Assembly (NCBI GenBank): GCA_000934665.2
Contig: KZ538911.1
Span: forward strand, 1-40,701
Source of the DNA: Catajapyx aquilonaris
Lineage: Eukaryota
Length of the DNA stretch: 40,701 bases
Direction: 5' to 3'
The first letter of the stretch is position 1, and each line of letters starts with the position of its first letter. A program made the position numbers and the translations under genes. Positions 2,459-33,000 of this stretch are shown here, piece after piece. Under the pieces are notes generated by a model, which ran no database searches, was not told the DNA's origin, and saw nothing but the letters and a program-made list of their open reading frames with translations.

Positions 2459-4870
2459 ATCAAGCTGAGTAATCTCACCAAGTCCATACATTTTTTCCAC
2501 GCGGCCATCAGCCATCGCATCGAGTAAATGAAGATCTGGGAGTGCTCCCTATCAGGTAATGAAATCGGTCTTATCTATAACCCCCTCCTCCTCTTTCAAC
2601 TCTTCACTTATTCCGTCTGGACAGGTCCATAACAGTAACATATACCTCTTTATTACTCCAAAGCAACACTGATTTTAGTTCCTCATTTTGAGTGCACAAG
2701 GTCGAAATTTACGCCCGCCCAAACTTTGGTGCCGGGTGATTGGTGCCGGGTTTTATAACGCTATAATGTGCGTACAAGGCACGTTTGGTTGCGAATTGTT
2801 TGCCAGGGTTCAACGCCAGCTTATTAATCCGATTAGCTTATATGGATGTAATTCGCCCCCTCGCGTCATCAGTTGCATACAAACCCTCCAAGTGCGATCT
2901 ATATCCCCGCCGAACACCCAATAGCTATACAGCATTTTCCATGCATATAAGCACCTTGCTCTGTGTATGACTTTTGATGGCTATACAGCAGACACGCAAA
3001 TTGCAGCCACATTATACCAAACACCTCATTAGAAATTACCGCTCTATTGAGCCGCGTCCAAAAACCAGACATGGATTTTTCTCCGTGACGACATGCACCC
3101 GAATAACAGGCCAATCACAGTCAATAACCTTCCACGCACTCGACACTGTAAAAATTCCCGGGCAGGTTACGCAAGATCAGCAAGGCTATTTTTCACTCGC
3201 ATAATTACTATAGCACTCCGTTATGTTGATGTACAGCAAACTCCCCGTATGTATATGCATCGTTGAGTAAAATCGCCACTGAATGACGAAACAGTTACGC
3301 AAGCCACCGCCGTTGGGTCAGTTTCCGTAATCAAAATGTATACAGAGCATTTATGTAACCATATTAGCAAACATTTACGTTTTGTACCTCACAATTCAAG
3401 GTACAGTGTACTGTACACATGGTACTGCTCAACAAATATTTCCAGGGGCACACATTCCACGCATTTTCACCTTTACCCTTCTCATGAACCTTTGGACAAT
3501 GGCCACCCTGCATATGACTGGTTAGTGCCAAAATTGCATGCAGTTTATTACCACGATTACCTCCAGAGCCAAATTCCATAAGCAAATATGAAATTTTGCG
3601 CCCTGGAAAACAAGTTTAACCAACTATAGTTTGCGCCAGTGGCAGTTAGGTCTATACAACTGTATAGGTTTAACGATTTATGAACGCAACTTTATCATCA
3701 TCGCCATGCAGTAATGTTACGCCCCCAGACCAAATAATTAATCCAAATTTGCAGCTCGTTACAGAGAGAGAGGAGGGGGGGAAAAAAACAGGTTCACAAA
3801 GAGCATAGAATTTATCCAAGTTGCAGTTGCTGAAACCGAGCCCAGGTCCCAGAGAAGCCTGCAGAAAAGTTCAAAGGACGTGATAAAACCTGCATTAGTT
3901 TCCAATTCCAGCCCCTGCCTTGCACAAGGTTCTAGGGGGGGNNNNNNNNNNNNNNNNNNNGGGGGGAGAGGTCCTGCTGAATGGAAAAGGTCATGCAGGT
4001 GCACAAGCCTCCAGGCCTCGACACACGCAAGTAACCCGGAATCTGCAAACATAGCCTGAGAGGAGGGCTAGAGAGGCGAGATCCCCGAGAAAAAAAAAAG
4101 CGCTTCGGTCCAAAACCATCACGCCGCAATTAATATTGCAGCTTAACTACACCCTCACGCCAGTTGCGCCCCGTGATTTTTATATGCACTTGGTTCAAAA
4201 TCATTACTTTCGCAAGGTGCCAACCTTACGCCTCCATCCACCATGCGGAATTCCCGGTGACACACACACACAAAAACATATAACATCCATTCAATAATGA
4301 AGCTGCATACTCAAACTATAGAGGTAATGTTTCCACAGTACTTGGTATATCAATGACGGATCGATTCAACGCAAGCTTTCGGTTGATACTGTTCAACACT
4401 GCGCTCTCTCCCCACCCTTTAGTACCCGCCCACCCACCCCAAAAAATACAATGTGGAGGATTCCAAATGTCGGACTTTTTTTTTTCTTTCTCCCCACTGG
4501 AAAATTAGAAAAGGGGCCGCGGTTTAGGGCCGGCTTTTTATCGAGCTAACCCTGGCAGATGAAGTGCACTTGCAGCACCTTCAAGCTAAGTTGCGAATTT
4601 ATTGCGCCAACATTTCACGTAAAGATACGGGGGAATTGCCTCTATATGTACGGGATTTTCGTGGGGATTCAGCACCTGCTGCAGCTAACAAAAAAAAAAA
4701 AAGTGCTAACCGTAGTACTGCATGGTAATTTTTATCCCAATTGAAAAGCGACATTGTAATCGGATTCTGCACCAATTTGGCTCTTGATAGTTTTTGGTAC
4801 AGCTACTGTTGAGACACCTTTTAATGCAAAATTGATACAATAAATTGGTGCAAAGTTTGAATGAAACACA

Positions 4871-21330: not shown

Positions 21331-21933
21331 AAACTAGTTGGTTCTTATTTTAAGGTTTTGCTTGTAAATCTGGCTGTAAATCTGGCTTGTAAATCTGTAA
21401 ATCTGGGCGTAAAGGTGACACAGGGAGGGCTGCACAGTCGATGTGGGAAATGTATGGTAAAACCCGAGTAAAACTATAAAGTACAACAACGCCAGAAATT
21501 GGGTATAAATTTTGAGAGTGACTAAAATAATAGTTTATTTCTTTCTGTGTACAATAAAAAATATACTGGGAGTTTCAATATCACAAACTGTCATTCCTAC
21601 TACTAACTAAATACCTCAGGTACTAAATTTCACACCTCATGATTGTCTGTAATCATGCCATGATTAATTTCAGAAATAGCACCTGACTTAATGACACATC
21701 TACAATGTAACATTGCTTCTCAGGATTACGCTGGGTAAATTTTAAAAAAATTGTGTGCATTTAACTTGCACTATATGCTTTGTAACACAGTACAAACTGA
21801 TGAAATGTTGCGTCAGGTAATATTTGTACTATATGGATTCTTTGGCTTTAGATGTCTGGCAACTAACAATCAACTGGGATGGCACATGGCAGACATTCAC
21901 AGCCCAAAATATTAAGAAAAAATCAACGTAAAA

Positions 21934-22049
21934 ATAAAGGCAAAAAAAAGTTGTTAAAAATTTGCGTAAACCGAGTTATCAATTTTCAATGTAGATAAAG
22001 GCAAAGAATAATCGTTAAAAATGTGTGTAAAGTGAGTTATCAATTTTCA
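21934..22049. repeat. 61-bp imperfect tandem duplication in the paralog 3' UTR
   Basis: ataaaggcaaa..gttaaaaat..gtaaa..gagttatcaattttca at 21934 and 21995. Confidence 0.8.
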
Positions 22050-22236
22050 CTGGGGAATGCTTGTAACCGGTGCTTTCTCAACATGCTGCTAGAAGAGTCT
22101 GGCATGATGTCATTCACGGCGGGAAAGTTCTCCAGACATCTGCAAATAAATATCAAAATGTATTAATTTTAGTGTGTGCAACTTTTTTAACATTATAAAA
22201 AATGAAACCTTGCAGACACTTACCAAATGTTCAGTC

Positions 22237-22270
22237 TTACAGCAAAGAGCAGCTCTTCTTAGGGGACAAA
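22237..22270 (-). CDS. Paralog terminal coding exon (Y)LSPKKSCSLL*; exon continues to a donor after 22224
   Basis: ttaattccccag| acceptor and TTG|gtaagt donor; next acceptor tttatttgcag| at 22139; AATAAA at 21539-21534. Confidence 0.62.
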
Positions 22271-23945
22271 CTGGGGAATTAAATAAAATATGTTTTCATT
22301 GTTATTAATGTATTAGCCTTGAATCACTGTCAGTCTAGGAAGCTTAATAATGTGCATGAAGTACTGTACTCCTTTCTTAGGAAATATTCTAAGTGATTCA
22401 AAGCAATAAAACAATTTCAATGGTATAGTAGCAATCATGCTTACTACTGCTGCACTTTTTCCATGATCCCTTCATACATTTCGTTGATCCTCTCCATGTT
22501 GGTTTCCTTCCCTACAATTACTACCTTGGGTCCCCTCCGAGGTTTAGTAGCGTCATATACTTCAACATCAAGACCAACGTTAGACAGTTTCAGTTGCTTC
22601 TTGAGGTGGGTAACCGAGTGCATCCAGGGTAACTCAAAAGTTAACATCACTGGCTGCATGCCAATGAGCAGCGACCTGGCCGTAATCACATCATCAACCT
22701 GGCCAGTGATGTTCACCAGGCTCTTCTTCACTGGAGGCAGGGAATCATTCGTGGGATCATTACTGTCTATGACAGTGTGGGTGTCCTCCATCAGCTTCTG
22801 AAGGTTGCATCTACCTGGCCCCATGATGAAGGAGTGGTATTTGAGGCGGATGTCCAAAATGTTGCGAGCAACCTTTTTTGGGGGGGAAAAAAGTTCATTG
22901 TCAGTAAATAATTTTGCCACTTCAGTTACTTTAATTCTTACTGTCTGAATCCCCAGCTCCTCCATGATGTGCTTAACGGCCATCGCCACATTTTGTGCCA
23001 TCATCTGAACTCCCTGAACCATGATCAGAATCTGAGTTGGAGGTCTTGTGGAAAATTTAACCTGCCAAGAAAAAGTGCAACAATTTTAGTTGAGTTGATA
23101 ATTTTCCTTAGCTATGGCAAAATGTACTTTAACAGATATATTATCTTCTTGTCTGACAACCTTTAACAGCAACACGTCTTACTAATTAGTACTGTATGTA
23201 TGCAATAATTACCTCAACTTCGTATATTCTTTCCATGACGACTGCAAATGCCTGGAAAATATGTTCATTGGGCCAGGCCGCGAAGAAAACTGGAGCATCC
23301 ACAAGAAACCGGATGACCAGGGGGCTGATCATCTAATGATAGAAATAACACTAATTAGTTCTTCCCCAAAATATTAATTATTATTTATGCTTGGAAAAAA
23401 AATGTGTGTGTGAGAGAGAGAAACAGTTACATTTTCAATCTGAGGTTGAAAGATTCCTTTGATCCCATTGAGATATTTAACATACCCGGATAACCTTGCG
23501 TGACACGTTCAGGGCATGCAGGTCACATCCTGCGATGACAACTCGGTTGTTCTTCTCCCAGACATCCATCTTGTTGGTATCTGCGAAGTGGATGGAACAT
23601 CCTGTCCACTGGCATATTGTCCGGACTCGCCATCCATTTTGGCCAATAAGTCCTGGGTGCTCATTGTAGGGTACTTCCATCTTCAGCCTTAGATGGCTCT
23701 GAATATTACGCACACTCTGTTGCTACAGAATTGTTCATAAAGTATGACACATTGTTTTTCTGCTACACTTCAGCAAGTCTAGGAAAATGTTCACCAACTC
23801 ATTCAAACATTTTAAATAAATTTTAAGCTTGCCATTACATCAAACGCACCTAATCAGATACCAAGTGACATAATTTTGGATGTCACCTTAATTAATGTAT
23901 AATTAGGTGTCATAAGATACTCACACGGCTTCTCTGGCCATCCAT
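22237..23945 (-). CDS. Divergent SAM-less Bicaudal-C paralog (KH2-KHL1-KH3-KHL2 only), about 319 aa, predicted C-terminus PKKSCSLL*
   Basis: Exons (minus): 23945-23925, 23722-23486, 23332-23213, 23061-22942, 22872-22445, 22270-22237 = 960 nt, open and phase-compatible. LKMEVPYNEHPGLIGQNG..GCSIHFADTN..EKNNRVVIAG, ISPLVIRF, KKSLVNITG..ARSLLIGMQPVMLTFELP align colinearly with the neighbouring BicC. The first and last exons are less certain than the core. Confidence 0.85.
22445..23061 (-). CDS. BicC-like paralog exons 23061-22942 and 22872-22445 (separated by an in-frame 69-nt intron)
   Basis: ORF track 22444..23022; counterparts of BicC exons 7 and 8+9. Confidence 0.9.
23213..23332 (-). CDS. 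BicC-like paralog exon (MISPLVIRF...RIYEVE)
   Basis: cattag| and GAG|gtaatt, 120 nt; counterpart of BicC exon 6. Confidence 0.88.
23486..23722 (-). CDS. BicC-like paralog KH2 exon
   Basis: ctgtag| and CGG|gtatgt, 237 nt; counterpart of BicC exon 5. Confidence 0.9.
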
Positions 23946-25148
23946 GATACATGCATAAAGTGGGCTAGAACGGAAAACAATTACATCATTTATGTATTAA
24001 TAATTTTTTAATGTGCACTGTAGCTTAGCATGCAAGTCACTATAGTTGAAAACCTAATACGGCAAATTATTTTTTAAATAATTACTTCGCATGCAATGAT
24101 GAAGAATCAGGATTTTTTTTTTAAAAAAAAAGTTCGGTGCACTTGTGGTCATGTGTTCTATGTGTGAAAGGTAGCAAATGTATCAAAAAAAATCTTTAAT
24201 AAAAAGGAACCTATTGAAATGAGTTAAATGGAATCTCTCTCTCGAAAAAAAACTGCAGTTTCTACCAGTACCTTTCGTCGCCTCGAAAATGAAAAATGAA
24301 AAAAAAAAGCAGAGACGTTTCTACAACCTGCATAATTATGCAGTATGCCTCTCGTTTATCGTCAATTTTCGCGGTTCTTTTCGTTATCGTTAATTACGGA
24401 CAAGCAGTGGTGTACTGCCCTGATGTAAACGAATTACTTGTCAGATCACAACATGCCAAAATTTTTATCCTACATTTTTTTCCGAGAGGTTTTACCTACT
24501 TTCCAACAGTACACCTGATTTTTACAATATTACCATTCATTACCCGAAATAATGACGACAAGTAAAACTAACCAGGCTTTTCAGATTTGGTATGTCCTCT
24601 TCGAGACGTCAAGCACACTACCTTTCTCATGGACGATGGACTACTGAACTTTTGAATTGAGAAGCCAGTAACACATATCTGAAGTTTTACTCGAGTTCCC
24701 ACGCTTTTCCCGACCTTCCCATTGGTCCTTCGGAAAATCGCGTCGAAAAACAACGCCAGATGATTTCGGCGCAGCTTCGGAGGTCGCTTACCTTTTGGTC
24801 CACATGTGGTAAAGGTAAATATATATAAAGGACGCGGGAATTTGACCGACAAAGAAGCCGATCTTCTGTTGATTCCCACCTTTTGATTATAACCTCTGCA
24901 GGTGAGAAACTTGGTGAGCAGGTGAGGAAAAAAATAAGTTATGACGCATTTACTTTTGGCAAATAATCTCGGGATAGGTATCGTAATTTAATGGTGATTA
25001 TCTTTTAATTCAACAGGTGTACAGTACATCACTGGTGAAGTTGAGCTCAGCATGACCTGCGACATTGGAGGGGTCAAAAAAAAAAGAAGCCAAAGACGAT
25101 GTACGTACTCGGACAAATCCAAAAATCACTTAAAACCAATTGGCACAT

Positions 25149-26594
25149 TTTATTTTTGTGGACAGTCCTACTAACACATCTTTCAAGAAGTAACCACTGG
25201 ATGCTGGAAATAACAAGCAGGATGATGTAAATTTAAAAAAAAATATTTTAAAAGGAACAGAACCAGTCTTTATTAAAAGTTACATGTATCGTTGTAATGC
25301 CGCACACTACAACTAAGGTCAGTGAATTGGAAGACTCGTGACTTACGTGAACAGCATTGTCATATTATAATAATTTACAATGTTGGATAAATGGAGAGTA
25401 CTGCATGGTAGCAGTATTTGTGAGCTACTTACGAATGAGTGATAGGCAGTCAAGTTGTTTTAAGTCACATTTTCAGCGTACAATATTTTTTTTTGATTTT
25501 ATGCAGTAGCCTGGACATCCCGACAAAACATGCTGCAGTGATCCTTGCTATAATTGTGAACTCCTGTGTACCGCATAACAATTATAACAATGATCACTTC
25601 AGCTTATTTTGCCAGGAATTCAACGTCCAAGCACAAAAGCAACTCCGTGTATTATTGATGTCTAGACAAATGCCAATAACCCCAGACTATACATGCACTC
25701 TTTTTAAAAACACTTCACATACAAATAAGTGATCATTATTATAATTGTTAAGTAATTTTGCACCTCTCAGCTCCAGGCTGATACATTTTTGCTTTTAAAT
25801 AGATCTTGTTATGTAACGATAAATTGACCAAAGATTTGTTTTTTTCTTTTCAGCCTTGCCAGATTCCAGTGTAATTGTTGGGTGTTTAATTGCGGCAGAT
25901 TGGCCCATAACGCAATCGTTCGCTTCACAATTGCGTTTTACAAGGCAACAGATTTGAACGCCTGCAATTAAGGGTCAACAATATACTTACTGAAGTTAGC
26001 AGTGCATAGTGCATAGTGCCAACATGAGGGAAAAGTTACAAGGCCAAAAACTTACTATAAATGATATCTTGTCAGATGCAAAAAATGTGTATTATTATTA
26101 AGGCATTACCCAAAAAAAAACATTTAAATTTCATGTCTGATTTGTTTGAGATTCATGATAAATACGCATGCCTTTTTTTTCCAATCGAAAAAAGGTACTT
26201 TTCGCACAAGTACAACCCCACCTAATAAGGTTTTTTTTCTCTCTCTTCAAAACTAGTGTGGCCATTACTTTGCATGCCTGTAGCACAAACACTCAATGTG
26301 CACTTAAAGCTATTTTGGACGAAAGTGTCTACTAGTACTAATAAATATCATTCTCTCTGAATATATCACATACAAATGAGCCTGTCCCGACAGGAGGAAA
26401 AATAATAATAATAATAAATGTGTCACTGGAAAAACATAAGGCACGCAAAGCAATATAAATTGCTAAGGCACACAAACTTTATAATTTATGTGCCTTTGCC
26501 ATAAAAATTGCTAATCAATAGCCTCCTTAGCTTCAGGTCTTGGTCCTTAAGTCGCTTTGGTTTCGGGTCAGTTGCGGTCAAGTCTTCGGCATCC
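25149..26594 (-). promoter_or_regulatory. Putative BicC 3' UTR (about 1.4 kb) with poly(A) signals and miRNA seed sites
   Basis: The first minus-strand AATAAA hexamers I found after the stop are at 25274-25269 and 25154-25149. GTGCCTTA occurs twice and GTCTTCCA once in the interval. Confidence 0.6.
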
Positions 26595-26644
26595 TCAACA
26601 GAAGTGGTGACCATTGTGGAACGCCTTGGAGTCTCCTTTAATTT
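26595..26644 (-). CDS. BicC: BicC last coding exon (EIKGDSKAFHNGHHFC*)
   Basis: catttcag| acceptor; phase 1 gives SAM helix 5 continuation 'AISEIK'; TGA at 26597-26595. Confidence 0.75.
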
Positions 26645-27051
26645 CTGAAATGAAAGGCATTAAATGCATTCAGTGTTGCTATTTTTTAGTGCTATTATTT
26701 TATGTAATTACTAATCACTTATAGAAACAGTTTCGGACAAATTGTGTGCTACACAAGACAATTTCAGTAGCAAGAGGGCGACACAGTGGCCGAGTGGTTA
26801 GCGCCACAGCCTTCCACCTCTAAGGTCCCGAGTTCAATCCCCGGGTCGGACGGAGGATACTTATGTGGATAGAGTTTCGATGGGTTCTCTCCGTGTTCGC
26901 GTGGGTTTTCTCGGGGTTCTCCTGTTTCCTCCCACTATCAAAATCCATCACATTACAGGCAAATTATTAAGTCGGTTATTCAAAAGATGATCCCCTAAGA
27001 GGCCCAGGGACCTATCACGGAGTATCCATTATTATATTATTATTATTATTA

Positions 27052-27084
<33 letters not shown>

Positions 27085-30000
27085 TCAGTAGCAAAAGGTC
27101 CAGAATATGCCAGCAACCTATACATGCATCCCTCCGAACAAAAGACTTCCAGATGCCAAAGTTTGGAGCTTGTACTGACCCGAAATGGCGCTCAGCATTC
27201 TCTTACGATGGCCAAACGGACGCACTCCCAATTGTTCCTCCAATTCCTTGTCCTTGAGTTGCAGAAAGATTTCTAAGTCCACCTCTTGCTTCATAAAGTT
27301 GTCTGAAATGCAATGCTTTTTTTTTTAACAACGCTGATCTGAATTCTGGTCAGTACACGACAAACAAGTTATACTGACCAATGTACTTCTCAAGATTGAT
27401 GATAGTCAGCACAGAGGCAATGTCCTTAGCATTCTTCAGAGCGTTTTCGTCATGTCGAGGAAGGGGAAGAGACTCGAAGTGGCTGCTGGAGCCAAGAGGT
27501 AGTGCCCCCTTGTTATTCCCTCCTTTCTTGTTGTTGTTGTTAGTGTCATTGGGAAGTCCATAATTTCCGTCAATGTCAATGTGGTCAAGAGCAGGTCGCT
27601 CCAGCCAGGGCATGCCATTGGTTTTCATGTCCTGAAAAAAAAAAATTTAGTTCATGAGTCGAGCTGCTTCAAAATTGCACAAGCTAAACTTATCCACTAG
27701 TTATAACTCAAGAATAATAGCAGAGTGCCGAAACAGTTGACAAGACTACTTACCACATCATTAGGCACTAAAGCACTCTCCTGTTGTTTCTGCTGTTGCT
27801 TTTTCTTCTCCTCAATCAGGACGGATTCAGGCATGGATCGGCTGAATCCATAGCCAACCCAGTCTGATGTGGGAATGCGAGGCTCGCTAGCCACAGGCTT
27901 CTGCTGCATTGCTGTCAAAACACAGCAAGAGGATTATTATTTTAACATTGCATTCTGAGCGACCCTTAGGAGTGAGACAAGTATTCTAAATGACTTTACC
28001 TTGCACTGCTTGCAGCTTCTTCGTGTCATAGTCAAACAGGCTACTATGATTTGCCCTTAATCGCAGCTGATTCATCTCATAACCCGGGGCACGTCTCTCC
28101 GGAAGGATGAGGGTCAGATCTGGATAAAGTGATTCAGGTTATGAAATGATCTTCAATCTCATCTCCTTTCCTACATACAAGTAGCATTAAAAACTTACCT
28201 GAACCAAGGCTATCATTGCTGCGGTTGATAAGTGTTGACGTTGAATTGTTTGGGGAGCTGCAAGCTGACATCCCTGAGGGAAACTGGCTGTCATCACTTG
28301 TTGGAGACAAATTGCGAGGACTGGTGTATGGACTTGATGTTGAACTGTCTGTGCTGCAGGTAGCGCTTGCTGTGAATGAAATTGTAGAACACTGTTTTAA
28401 GCCATGGATTAACAAGGCGATGGAAAGTTACTGCCAGTTGAGATTCATTCAAACTTGCCTGGACGTAAGAACAAGTCATCCACATCACTTGGGCGTCGTC
28501 GGTGATGGTGGTGTCCTCCTCCCATCATGTATCCTGTGTATGGCTTCATTCCAAGCTGATTTCCACCAATAACGGAGAAGGAAGCAGGTGAAAAGAAGGG
28601 CTGGGACGACGGGGTAGGAGACAAGGGACGGAAGTACGGAGGATTGGCTGATGGCGGGCCAGAAGTGGTGGCGGCAGGTGGGAAGACCGAGGAAGGTGAA
28701 TTGCGGACAGGTGGCCAGGGAGAGCTGCACATCCCTGGGCGAATGAGGCTCTGCATTGGAAGGTCTGCAGAGAAAGAAATACAATGAGCTTGTGACTTCC
28801 ACATCATTTTGTCAAGTAAATTTTTTTTTTCTTTTACATCACCACCAATGATGCTAAATTTTCAAAAGTTGAACCCACCCCATCCAACTGTGGCGAGACG
28901 ACAATTTCAAACTTACTGATCCCATAGAGTGGTGTGATAGCAGGGACGTTGTATGCCTCAGGAATCTTGACCTGCACTGGTGGCCCCTCTGCGATTCCCA
29001 GGATCTGCCGACGTGCTTCGTAAACATTGGCAATATTCCTCTCCGTGCCCTTGATGACCACCGAAACGGCCAGCTGCTTTTTCTTTGGGTGCACATTGAT
29101 CGTCACGCCCAATGTCTCGATCAGTTGGGTTTGCTTAAGCATGTCTGGCTGCGATTCCTCATGAATGTCAAACATCAACACCACTGGTAGAGAGCCCTTA
29201 AATAAAAAATATAAGTCACACTTTATACCACAAGTCACCAGAGAGAGAGAGCATTCAACATGAAACTCTTGAAAAATTCAGAATAAAATACTACTACTAT
29301 TTTGTGTTAAATCTGGGAATAAAATTTCATCTTTAAATGCCCACTTTTTCATAAACACGACTAAACACTTTTTAACTTACAATAAGCTGCTGTCGAGCAG
29401 CATGCACATTTTGCACCCCTCCAGTGATGGTGACGTTGCTCTTCTGCAGTGGAGATATATTAGGGTCAGTAGCATCATGCACCATGATTTGGGTGCTGGT
29501 CCCTTGCATAATGGCCTGTAGATTGTAATAATTGCGTCCCAAAACAGCCGAGTGATGCTGTGGTGAAATCTCCATCGAGTTCTTCACCATGACCGTGTTC
29601 TGCAGAGTAAAGGCAAGTGATTCATGTGCTCCTCTGGAAATTTTGCAACAACTTACAGTGACACCAGCGCAGTAATAGTCCATCAGGTGCAGCACGGCCT
29701 TCTCAATATCTTCACCCTGCTCTTCGCAGCCCTTAACTGACACGCACATTCCTCTCATCTTACCCCATTTTGGGAAAGACACCTAAAAAAGATGATAGTA
29801 CATGTATAGTGCGTAAGTGCAACTCCCACTCAGCCATCTGGCACATTACACATGTGCAGTGTTCATATTGTGAATTTAATTAATTACGAGAAATTCTTTT
29901 ATTAGGTTGCGTACATGTGAAAGTTGAACTTTTCACCTTAGTCCATTGGATATCATTGGTAATTTTTTAAATAAATATCTCAATAGTTACTTAGAATGTG

Positions 30001-33000
30001 GCTGAAACTTGTAATAAATAAATCTGAAGCCCACCTGTACTTTGTACTGGTCCTGTACTTGCTGGACAACAGGATTGTTAGGATCAGGCAAAGGCTGAAG
30101 CACATTCATGTAAGGCAGCTCGAAGTAGATGATCAGTGGGCTCAACTCCTGTGAAAGCAACAGTAAGATTATAAAACTGGTCCACCAATTAAATTTCAAG
30201 ATGTTATGACAGTGTCTGAGAATTTTATTTGCTTCCAGAGAATTTAATCCAACAGTGACACGACGAACTGAATTAAAAATTAAAATCTTGAGCGATGCAC
30301 TGATAATACTTTCATAGGCTAATATGTGCCCAGTTCTTAGATGTCCGATATCTTTTTGAGACTTAAATTGGTTCATACCCTGACACGAGCCCTGGCACTT
30401 TCCACTGCATCGATTTCCCCCGAGATGGAGACTTGGTTGCTCTTCTCCACCATGCTGGTGCGGTTGGAGTCTGGGAAATGGATGTGGCACTTGGTAGCGT
30501 CCATCACCTGCTGGATGATCCTCCCACCACGTCCGATAATGTGGGAGTGCTCGTTGTAGCTCACATCCATCTTCAGCGTCACTCTTGGTGTCTGAAATTA
30601 CACAAAAAAGAAATTAGACACAATTGCCTTAAAAACAGAGCATTACTTCCATGACACTTACACGTGTGTCTAGCACAGCTAGAATCTTCTCCTTAGCCGA
30701 ACGCACATCTTCTATCTTGCCAACAACTCGAATATGTGGATCTGAAAAATATTAAAACATTTTCTGTACTATTGTAAATTGTGAGGATTTACACTCTTAC
30801 TATCTGCATTACATTTTAATTCACAATTTTCTCAGATTGTACAGTGCACATTTGCAACAGAGTTTGTTATTTTTAGCAGAGTATATTCATTAACAATGCA
30901 TTAATGATTGCTTTATGCATTATGCCAATGCATAGATGGAGTAAATATGGAAACGCGAGCAGAAGTTTTACGAATTAAGCCATGCATGTCCCTTTCTCCC
31001 TGAGGTGTTCCAGCCTTCCCTTGTAAATGACATAATATTGCAAAGTGTCCAGAATGCAAATATTTACATTGCATGAACCATACACTTCCAAGGCTACTGT
31101 CAGAAGAATGTGACCCACCCTGCATGTCCGATAAAACATCAATATGAGGAACACAAAAGCCAACCTGGACACCCAAAAGGGATTACCTAATTGTATTTCA
31201 AGAATTTTGCCTTCTTACCCACGAAAAATGAACATTTCCGCCAACTTCGCCCATTCAATTTGGGCATTTTTTTTTCAGGCGCAGTCCCACAAAAAAAAAG
31301 CAGCCCATGTCGCAACCCAAAGGGGCAAAAAAAAAAAAATACATGCTTCACGACCCTTTACTCAACACGCGACATACCGTGTTGTTGTCCCAAAAAAATG
31401 CAAAAAAAAAGGGGGGGGGGGCATTAAAAAGATTTCGCCGAATCCGAATATTCAATTGCGGCTCACATACACTTTGCAAATTAAATGTTCTTGGCACATG
31501 CAGCTAAACAAACGATCCAGCCTGGAGCACCATACACTTTTAATTATCTTTCCATCATTGTCCAACTTTCCAGAAGGGCACAGTCCGGGGAGGGCATATA
31601 TTAGTAATGCATCTTCCTCACATGTTGCAGGGCCAAAGGCATAAAAAATGGATGGTCATCCAGAAATCGACTAGCCAAGTAGCTGCATACACACCTGCAA
31701 AGGCGTTTCTGCCTATCGATCTCTAAAGCCTCCTGGCCCCCCCTAAAATCCCCCCCTTGTTGTCTGACCAACGTTTTCTCATAATAGGTTTATCACATTT
31801 GCACTAATCAGCAAGCATAAAAATTGGGGATGAAAAAAAAAAAGAGCGCAAACGCTGCCTCCCCAAAAAATTAAACCTGAGCTTGTCAGCTATCAATTGT
31901 TAAAAGTAATTGTAATAATGTCACATAAGAAATGAATTGTTGAATTGAATGTCACCTTGTAGCCAACATGTACTGTACCCTAGTTCTATTCCTGAACTAG
32001 CGTGTCGTGATTAATTGAAAATCTGGAAATTTCCAGGGAGCACATTCTCAAGTTTTAAAAATTCGGTTGGTCTAATTACAAGGCGGATCAATCATAAATC
32101 AGCCAGTTGTCACCCCAGCCCCCTTTCATTTTAATCTGGTGGAAAATTGGCAGGCTTGCGTTATGATACAATAACATGCATTTACTTGTCGAGGTCACTA
32201 GGTCGAAAGGCGCATCGAAGTTTAGGAGTATTGACGACACAAAAGGCAACGATTACCGGGTATAATCGACTGAGCACATTTGGATGTTAACTATTGATTA
32301 AAAGGTTGCCATAACATACCCGGATAGTGATGAATCTAGCAGAATAAGTGCAATTGCTCTGAAGACATGCGCTGCTGTTAAACTTATGTTTGCAAACATG
32401 ACAATTGTAATTAAAAATTTTCACTCACCTTTCTTGGACTTTGCTCCAACTTTGAGGCGCGAAGGCCAGGCAATAGTGGTCGACGTCTCTTCCATAATCT
32501 GAATGGAAGAAAAACATGTCACACGCCGTCCTCACAGGTCACACTGCGCCTTGGTTGTTTAAAAATTCCACATACATGATACATGCGTGAATATGACGTC
32601 TGCATCTCACTGGTGCAGAGAGAAGTAAATTCTCCTTCTCTCACCAACAGTCTCACCTTCCCCAACCCCAACATCCACAGTGGGCCAATCACAAGCCTTT
32701 TTGCCCTCCCACATTTCCAATCCCCAGTCTCAGTGAAACCCCCCTTTTAAAAATTTGGGAGAACCCCCCGCGAGAGATAGGACCTAAGGACTTCACATGC
32801 ACATGTGACTAATTACATGCTGCATCTTTTAAATCCCTCAAAAAGTGTTGCATCTGCAATTGCGTCACTGCAGTAGTTCCTATACCCAATTAAGTTTCCA
32901 CTGGTATTGAATGGTCGCAAGTTTAATTGCAAATCGAATCAAATGTAACTCACCCTTTGGAAGAACACCTCCGCATTTTCCACCTCATCGCTTCCACCTG

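Follow-up and report, generated by a model that had tools for sequence, protein, structure and literature searches.

The window analyzed here covers positions 1 to 40,701 of contig KZ538911.1 from Catajapyx aquilonaris (assembly GCA_000934665.2), 40,701 nucleotides (nt) in all, and it carries two Bicaudal-C (BicC)-like genes, both on the minus strand and both with short introns: a full-length Bicaudal-C (the neighbor) and a shorter paralog, whose last recognizable BicC exon runs into an apparent TAG stop at 22446 to 22444. An earlier note on this DNA had proposed that the paralog traded its SAM domain for a C-terminal prenylation signal, reached by splicing across that stop. The explanation that we consider best, with a probability of roughly 0.4, is a truncated duplicate consisting of KH modules only, whose transcript would be spliced into a mini-exon and then into a further exon (exon B), yielding a long and soluble tail. 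The exons of the neighbor were mapped with three BicC proteins (P0006, P0001, and P0029) as tblastn queries. The exons of the paralog, including an uncertain one at the 5' end, are as follows.

23925 to 23941, minus strand: possible first coding exon (uncertain), an ATG plus six codons followed by GTGAGT (donor, 8.4 bits; the acceptor that it needs, at 23722, scores -4.3).

23486 to 23722, minus strand: exon with the first KH domain (Pfam KH_1, 1.5e-9, match 23477 to 23722; 45% identity over 53 amino acids [aa] to the neighbor).

23213 to 23332, minus strand: exon with a linker or KH-like part (open frame with flanking AG and GTAATT; guanine-plus-cytosine [GC] content of 48% between introns of 29% and 31%; passes the strict GC-island test described below).

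22942 to 23061, minus strand: exon with the KH_BICC1-like part (junctions; weak KH_BICC1 match).

22447 to 22872, minus strand: large exon with the second KH domain followed by the last KH-like module (Pfam KH_1, 3e-7, match 22444 to 23085; 39% identity over 70 aa to the neighbor; tblastn).

The BicC character of the paralog, which the earlier note had recognized, is borne out by these two KH_1 matches, by an identity of 39 to 45% to the neighbor, and by three introns whose positions and phases the two genes have in common. All of its top matches among 1.84 billion representative proteins are BicC-like (E down to 4e-19), its type I KH domains stand in the BicC arrangement (KH, KH-like, KH, KH-like), and its KH_BICC1 match reaches 22.7 bits (E = 8.7e-5, under the curated cutoff of 27). 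The common introns are all of phase 0 and occupy the same alignment positions as in the neighbor (one following the first KH domain, one following “...V(Q/E),” and one preceding the second KH domain), which argues for a duplication at the DNA level and not for a retrocopy. A further intron, between the second KH domain and the next KH-like module, is present in the neighbor (29380 to 29197 region) and lost in the paralog (22872 to 22447). The homologous short introns at 29656 to 29600 (57 nt, neighbor) and at 22941 to 22873 (69 nt, paralog) each have a length divisible by three and contain no stop, such that retention of either would insert residues and not truncate the protein.

The claimed absence of SAM holds: none of the 97 minus-strand open reading frames (ORFs) of at least 45 aa in positions 1 to 22300 matches this domain, a negative that covers ~22 kb downstream and ORFs of that size, while SAM could lie in shorter exon pieces or beyond the window. 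To say that SAM was “traded” for a CaaL ending is nevertheless an overstatement, in that the N-terminal KH-like module and the entire long central region of BicC are missing from the paralog as well; tblastn with the three BicC proteins found no N-terminal KH module between 23722 and 27000. The possibility that the region downstream descends from the neighbor’s 3' exons was rejected, as a relaxed tblastx search of that region against the neighbor’s 3' half gave a best E value of only 0.18. As predicted from its exons, the paralog is a fast-diverging tandem duplicate of Bicaudal-C cut down to the central KH/KH-like block (~300 residues). In its architecture, the locus adds a new variant to a family already known.

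Fast divergence raises the question of whether the paralog is a dying or untranscribed copy, in which case the downstream signals described next would all be noise. Its identity to other BicCs is ~27 to 35%, against 42 to 55% for the neighbor, and nothing closer than 42% was found among the 1.84 billion representatives; its KH loops are altered (the GXXG loop of the first KH domain is GQNG, versus GRGG in the neighbor), and its 5' end is poorly defined, with -4.3 bits for the acceptor at 23722. What makes a dying copy very improbable is that ~301 codons over four exons have stayed open, with no stop or frameshift, at a divergence of ~60% from the neighbor, that the GT/AG borders are intact at the three conserved intron positions, and that the contrast in GC content between exons and introns is retained. 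A 60-nt GC island (23906 to 23981) overlaps the possible first coding exon.

The C-terminus of the protein depends on how the transcript is read beyond the large exon. Splice sites were scored with matrices for which the two BicC genes supplied 10 confirmed donors and 9 confirmed acceptors (the confirmed donors score 0.7 to 9.5 bits when each is left out in turn), and the elements in question are listed in the direction of transcription.

22444 to 22446, minus strand: apparent TAG stop overlapped by a donor, TA/GTAAGC, with the intron G at 22444 (sequence and donor score).

22271 to 22444, minus strand: candidate 174-nt intron (GC content of 30%, like the 29 to 32% of confirmed paralog introns).

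22241 to 22270, minus strand: candidate 30-nt mini-exon, T plus LSPKKSCSL plus CT (GC content of 47%; read on, it gives Leu and then TAA, i.e., CSLL-stop).

22235 to 22240, minus strand: second donor, CT/GTAAGA, overlapping that TAA (4.4 bits; core the same as that of the confirmed donor at 22941).

22218 to 22223, minus strand: third donor, TTTG/GTAAGT, with the exon end at 22224 (highest-scoring of the three donors at 7.4 bits, within the top 1.3% of GTs).

22040 to 22139, minus strand: exon B, 99 nt (22139 to 22041), with TGA at 22042 to 22040 (acceptor tatttatttgcAG/A; 32 open codons in the frame of the 22241 donor).

21934 to 22049, no strand assigned: 61-nt tandem repeat, 1.9 copies with 85% matches (self-BLAST).

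21534 to 21539, minus strand: first canonical AATAAA behind the paralog (no AATAAA or ATTAAA between 22444 and 21539).

The open frame at 23085 to 22444 (minus strand) ends at the TAG, and this stop is split by a donor in the way that the earlier note described (minus strand, ...GTG CAG CAG TA/G TAA GCA, with GTAAGC from 22444). The donor scores 4.6 bits, within the top 7% of 4498 GTs, and the facing acceptor, ...aattccccAG/T, which has its AG at 22272 to 22271 behind a pyrimidine-rich run and 22270 as its first exon base, scores 6.4 bits (top 2.6% of 4505 AGs). Joining 22445 to 22270 indeed gives TA plus T, a tyrosine, followed by L S P K K S C S L L and the TAA at 22239 to 22237, with the cysteine codon at 22251 to 22249; the join is plausible, since both scores fall within the range of confirmed sites and the GC content switches between intron-like and exon-like at its borders. 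The second donor named in the earlier note is also present, at 22241/22240, and its use deletes the TAA, leaving the cysteine internal with no CaaX end, whereas the donor at 22224 keeps the TAA and places an intron 15 nt behind a CSLL-ending stop. Just ahead of the cysteine, the mini-exon encodes S-P-K-K (22263 to 22252, minus strand), which fits the minimal pattern for phosphorylation of the cyclin-dependent kinase type, making it a candidate site.

When every path through sites scoring no lower than the observed ones is enumerated, exactly three products remain. In the first, 22445 is joined to 22139, where TA plus A makes TAA, so that there is no tail and the protein is the same as that of the unspliced form. 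In the second, the mini-exon is read to the TAA at 22239 to 22237 for an 11-residue tail ending in CSLL, which requires that the transcript be polyadenylated behind the mini-exon or that the 22224/22223 donor be used. In the third, the 22241/22240 donor leads into exon B for a 43-residue tail in which the cysteine is internal. The cysteine therefore lies exactly four residues from the C-terminus in one of the three, and the polyadenylation signal at 21539 is compatible with all of them. On these signals, the existence of a spliced extension of some kind is the more probable case, and the long tail would be its main product at somewhat less than even odds.

The evidence for transcription and splicing beyond the TAG comes mainly from base composition. 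The GC content of paralog exons is 47 to 50% and that of the introns is 29 to 32%; beyond the TAG, it is 30% at 22444 to 22271, 47% at 22270 to 22241, 27% at 22240 to 22140, 47% at 22139 to 22041, and 26% at 22040 to 21900, such that the series (48 / 30 / 47 / 27 / 47 / 26%) changes exactly at the proposed borders. Exon B begins behind the best-scoring site of all, an acceptor of 13.4 bits (top 0.2% of AGs). Under a strict test for GC islands (99 nt at 46% GC or more, with both 100-nt flanks at 30% or less), 0 of 33,666 non-exon positions pass, and in the whole window, only exon B and one confirmed paralog exon do so. The only frame of exon B that is open is the one defined by the chain of splices, and its TGA falls where the GC content drops; the codon score of this frame is +1.35 bits, against -14.3 and -11.3 in the other two. 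A shorter, 60-nt island test also flags the mini-exon (22208 to 22276), although 7 of the 11 loci flagged by that test are unexplained. Together, base composition and the acceptor suggest that the transcript runs past the TAG and is spliced.

Two further points concern exon B itself. The candidate identity of an RNA gene was rejected, in that Rfam (E up to 1) returned only a chance match of 0.81 elsewhere and no tRNA was detected, and self-BLAST of 22446 to 21701 found no second copy of exon B in the window, only the 61-nt tandem repeat. This repeat begins inside the last codons of the exon-B frame and contains the closing TGA in its first copy, which indicates that the end of the frame may be young.

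Chance levels for the overlap of stop and donor, as well as for the tails, were taken from the window’s own non-exon DNA. GTAAG or GTGAG overlaps 108 of 3768 stop trinucleotides (2.9%) and, among TAGs alone, 7 of 790 (0.9%); among 1132 read-outs behind acceptor-like sites, a cysteine stands at -4 in 4.2%, and a CxxL/F end is formed in 0.53%. In a simulation of the entire chain, run on 2776 random stops with thresholds set just under the observed donor and acceptor scores, 58 stops had a bypassing donor with an acceptor, 12 were extended by at least 43 residues, 5 placed a cysteine at -4, and none ended in CxxL/F. The arrangement of stop, donor, and tail is rarer than chance readily yields, with the proviso that the motif was chosen after the fact, and a handful of chance cases of such a configuration are expected genome-wide.

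These figures bear first on the case in which the protein simply ends in ...KVQQ, with no tail, either because the TAG is a real stop in an unspliced 3' untranslated region or because 22445 is joined to 22139 and exon B is untranslated. The stop lies 6 residues past the last conserved KH-like helix, which is a natural domain end; the overlap of 2.9% of random stops by GTAAG or GTGAG is not rare genome-wide; the route to the strongest acceptor (22139) yields TAA at once; and the neighbor has no intron at the homologous position. Overlap of TAG in particular is seen in just 7 of 790 instances, however, and this explanation accounts neither for the exon-like GC content of the mini-exon and exon B nor for the open frame of exon B, nor for the lack of AATAAA or ATTAAA over ~900 nt behind the TAG. 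We regard an unextended protein as rather unlikely, with the sequence signals pointing to it less well than to the long tail.

The same chance levels apply to the prenylation proposed in the earlier note, according to which the 22445-to-22270 splice gives an end of ...KKSCSLL, the cysteine is geranylgeranylated by geranylgeranyltransferase I (GGTase-I), and a protein composed of KH domains becomes anchored to a membrane. That note gave both the join and the motif correctly, and CxxL/F ends arose in 0 of 2776 simulated chains and 0.53% of the 1132 random tails. As read, C-S-L-L has leucine at the X position and an aliphatic residue at a2. The statement that Rac2 ends in CSLL is correct: the available text of PMC7674641 tabulates the RAC2 C-terminus as CSLL with a 20-carbon lipid. 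Leucine at X directs GGTase-I, and in OAS1 p46, whose CaaX has leucine at X, the last four residues are both necessary for geranylgeranylation and sufficient for it when moved to another isoform (PMC8357416, in the text available). From RAC2 and the OAS1 p46 rule, it follows that a CSLL-ended protein, if made, would likely be lipidated. The donor that preserves the TAA, at 22224, is moreover the strongest of the three and the closest to the very strong acceptor at 22139, with the stop just 15 nt ahead of the 22224/22139 junction.

What speaks against prenylation is that an untranslated exon B turns three of its features into coincidences, namely, the GC content of 47%, the single in-register frame, and the stop at the point where GC drops. 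A cysteine at -4 occurs in 4 of the 150 best BicC-family matches, which is not above the 4.2% of random tails; just two lysines precede the cysteine, and just 7 residues separate it from the last helix. Conservation lends no support, the searches having found no orthologue. One family protein (P0093) ends in CFLL and was considered as a known prenylated BicC, a status that we reject, as it is a 179-aa fragment that resembles an ordinary BicC (P0076) except at its end. A literature search returned no relevant paper linking Bicc1 with CaaX, and among the matches listed, there was no BicC paper on prenylated KH proteins. The CaaL ending is one of three frame outcomes and, as far as the splice signals and base composition go, not the best supported of them. 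We consider it unlikely that a CSLL-ended isoform is made in appreciable amounts, the membrane-tethering model as a whole is more doubtful than that, and a functional prenylated BicC paralog is improbable. The earlier note’s interpretation holds in part: the duplicate without SAM is real and splicing beyond the TAG has the better odds, while prenylation is a minority reading.

Relatives of the paralog would have allowed the tails to be compared, and none of near length was found. A phmmer search of the 1.84 billion representatives gave 158 matches, none with E < 1e-30 and the best being ordinary BicCs with 26 to 42% identity; a scan of metagenomes for the protein pattern matched 48 stretches, with no relative among them; and an exact 33-nt scan of metagenome contigs produced no match. 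With no orthologue recovered from protein or metagenome searches, the splices are predicted from this one sequence, and this is the first of several considerations that weigh against the long tail. Just 10 donors and 9 acceptors went into the matrices; 7 of the 10 confirmed donors outscore the one at the TAG (4.6 bits); an exon of 30 nt is unusually small; and the 22241 donor (4.4 bits) is weaker than its 22224 rival (7.4 bits) for the same acceptor. Exon B is weakly coding-like, its score being reached by ~10% of 2094 open noncoding stretches; in the neighbor, there is no intron at the homologous place, and the exon continues for ~24 more codons; and the 5' end of the paralog is, as noted, poorly defined.

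Under the explanation that we prefer, the truncated duplicate with a long tail, the mRNA would be spliced at 22445/22444 into the mini-exon (22270 to 22241) and then at 22241/22240 into exon B (22139 onward), and the resulting tail of 43 residues would probably be disordered and soluble, with the cysteine of “CSLL” at an internal position. A geranylgeranylated CSLL isoform would arise only by way of the 22224/22223 donor, 17 nt further on, or with the mini-exon as the last exon. It is conceivable, though quite improbable, that these two donors (22241/22240 and 22224/22223), 17 nt apart, act as a switch between a soluble 43-residue tail and a geranylgeranylated CSLL end that carries the KH module, together with RNAs or BicC partners bound to it, to a membrane.

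As to function, the available text of PMC9491823 reports that the KH region of BicC binds RNA, that binding of CNOT1/3 needs the KH domains, and that translational repression is assigned to the central region and polymerization to SAM. With repression and polymerization located outside the KH block, a copy reduced to that block would be expected to retain some of these partners but neither to repress nor to polymerize. The paralog may then be a nonpolymerizing KH module that competes with, or modulates, full BicC for RNA targets or for partners bound by the KH domains, such as CCR4-NOT; alternatively, it could be a protein-binding platform in the manner of GLD-3.

To our knowledge, GLD-3 of Caenorhabditis elegans lacks SAM. 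This BicC relative is built of KH domains (PDB 3n89), a KH-only architecture like that of the paralog, yet the sequence likeness between the two is marginal (E = 0.14, 15 bits), and the paralog arose locally, by tandem duplication of a normal BicC. According to the available text of PMC3352585, the first KH domain of GLD-3 binds GLD-2 and no RNA binding was found for the KH region; the change of the loop from GRGG to GQNG in the paralog recalls this use of a KH block as a protein platform. With canonical BICC1, the paralog shares the KH and KH-like modules, their order, and three intron positions, and it has a weak KH_BICC1 match, but it is without the N-terminal KH-like module, the central region, SAM, and the ...W ending seen in many of the 150 best matches.

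The nearest documented instances of a CaaX gained through splicing in RNA-binding proteins, in the sources as available, are OAS1 p46, in which the choice of 3' splice form sets a CaaX end with leucine at X that is geranylgeranylated and directs the protein to endomembranes (PMC8357416), and ZAP-L, an RNA-binding protein given its CaaX in the same way. Both belong to other families, and their isoforms and lipid have been demonstrated, whereas the isoforms of the paralog are known only as readings of the genome. The four-residue ending is identical in RAC2, a Rho GTPase that has a hypervariable region and cycles with RhoGDI, but CSLL in the paralog is only one of three reading-frame outcomes.

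BicC is thought to combine KH-mediated binding of RNA and CCR4-NOT with SAM-driven polymerization into granules, and a natural, long-lived copy that keeps only the KH part would lend itself directly to testing how that block acts by itself, whether as competitor, adaptor, or decoy. If the CSLL isoform exists, it would link to membranes, through a lipid, a regulator of mRNAs that acts in embryonic polarity and, if so anchored, would be the first such member of the BicC family, with a membrane anchor in place of SAM-driven granules; if it is the long-tail or the no-tail form that is made, the paralog is an ordinary truncated gene duplicate.

Beyond the two BicC genes, 221 further ORFs in the window were compared with Pfam and gave nothing other than two subthreshold matches at chance level. 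At 4396 to 4545 (minus strand), cytochrome c oxidase subunit VIIc is weakly matched (E = 0.0036; 18 bits, cutoff 25), and this is the only Pfam match, itself subthreshold, in the GC-richer left third of the window. The remaining gene is the neighbor.

27118 to 32495, minus strand: neighboring Bicaudal-C (Pfam, tblastn with three BicC proteins, junctions).

Its domain order is that of a complete BicC, namely, an N-terminal KH-like part, KH domains, a KH_BICC1 module, a long middle of low complexity, and SAM, with Pfam matches to KH_1 (5.5e-16 and 2.8e-9), KH_BICC1 (1.7e-18, 66.6 bits), and SAM_1 (3e-11). The N-terminal KH module (Pfam KH_BICC1_1st region, “WPSRLKVGAKSKKDPHIRV”) was located by tblastn at 32495 to 32430 and 30742 to 30662; the 5' end may lie further upstream, and the 3' end given here is provisional. 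A search for longer proteins with an exon of the neighbor as the query found none. Over the whole protein, the top database relative is an amphioxus BicC (47% identity), and the first KH exon is closest to echinoderm BicCs (74 to 75% identity), so the source is evidently an invertebrate whose close relatives are absent from the protein collection.

Around the 3' end of the neighbor, the frame with the second half of its SAM (27118 to 27324, minus strand) continues to a TAG at 27120 to 27118; many BicCs end in ...W. A long simple repeat of the ATT/AAT type (27015 to 27191) stands directly behind the SAM exon and appears in ORF lists as poly-Ile or poly-Asn. Between the two BicC genes, at 26486 to 26659 (minus strand), there is a GC island of ~50% (flanks, 31 to 33%) behind an acceptor-like tttcatttcAG, with an open frame of 57 aa and no Pfam match; it may belong to the full BicC as a final exon, to the paralog as a 5' exon, or to another gene.

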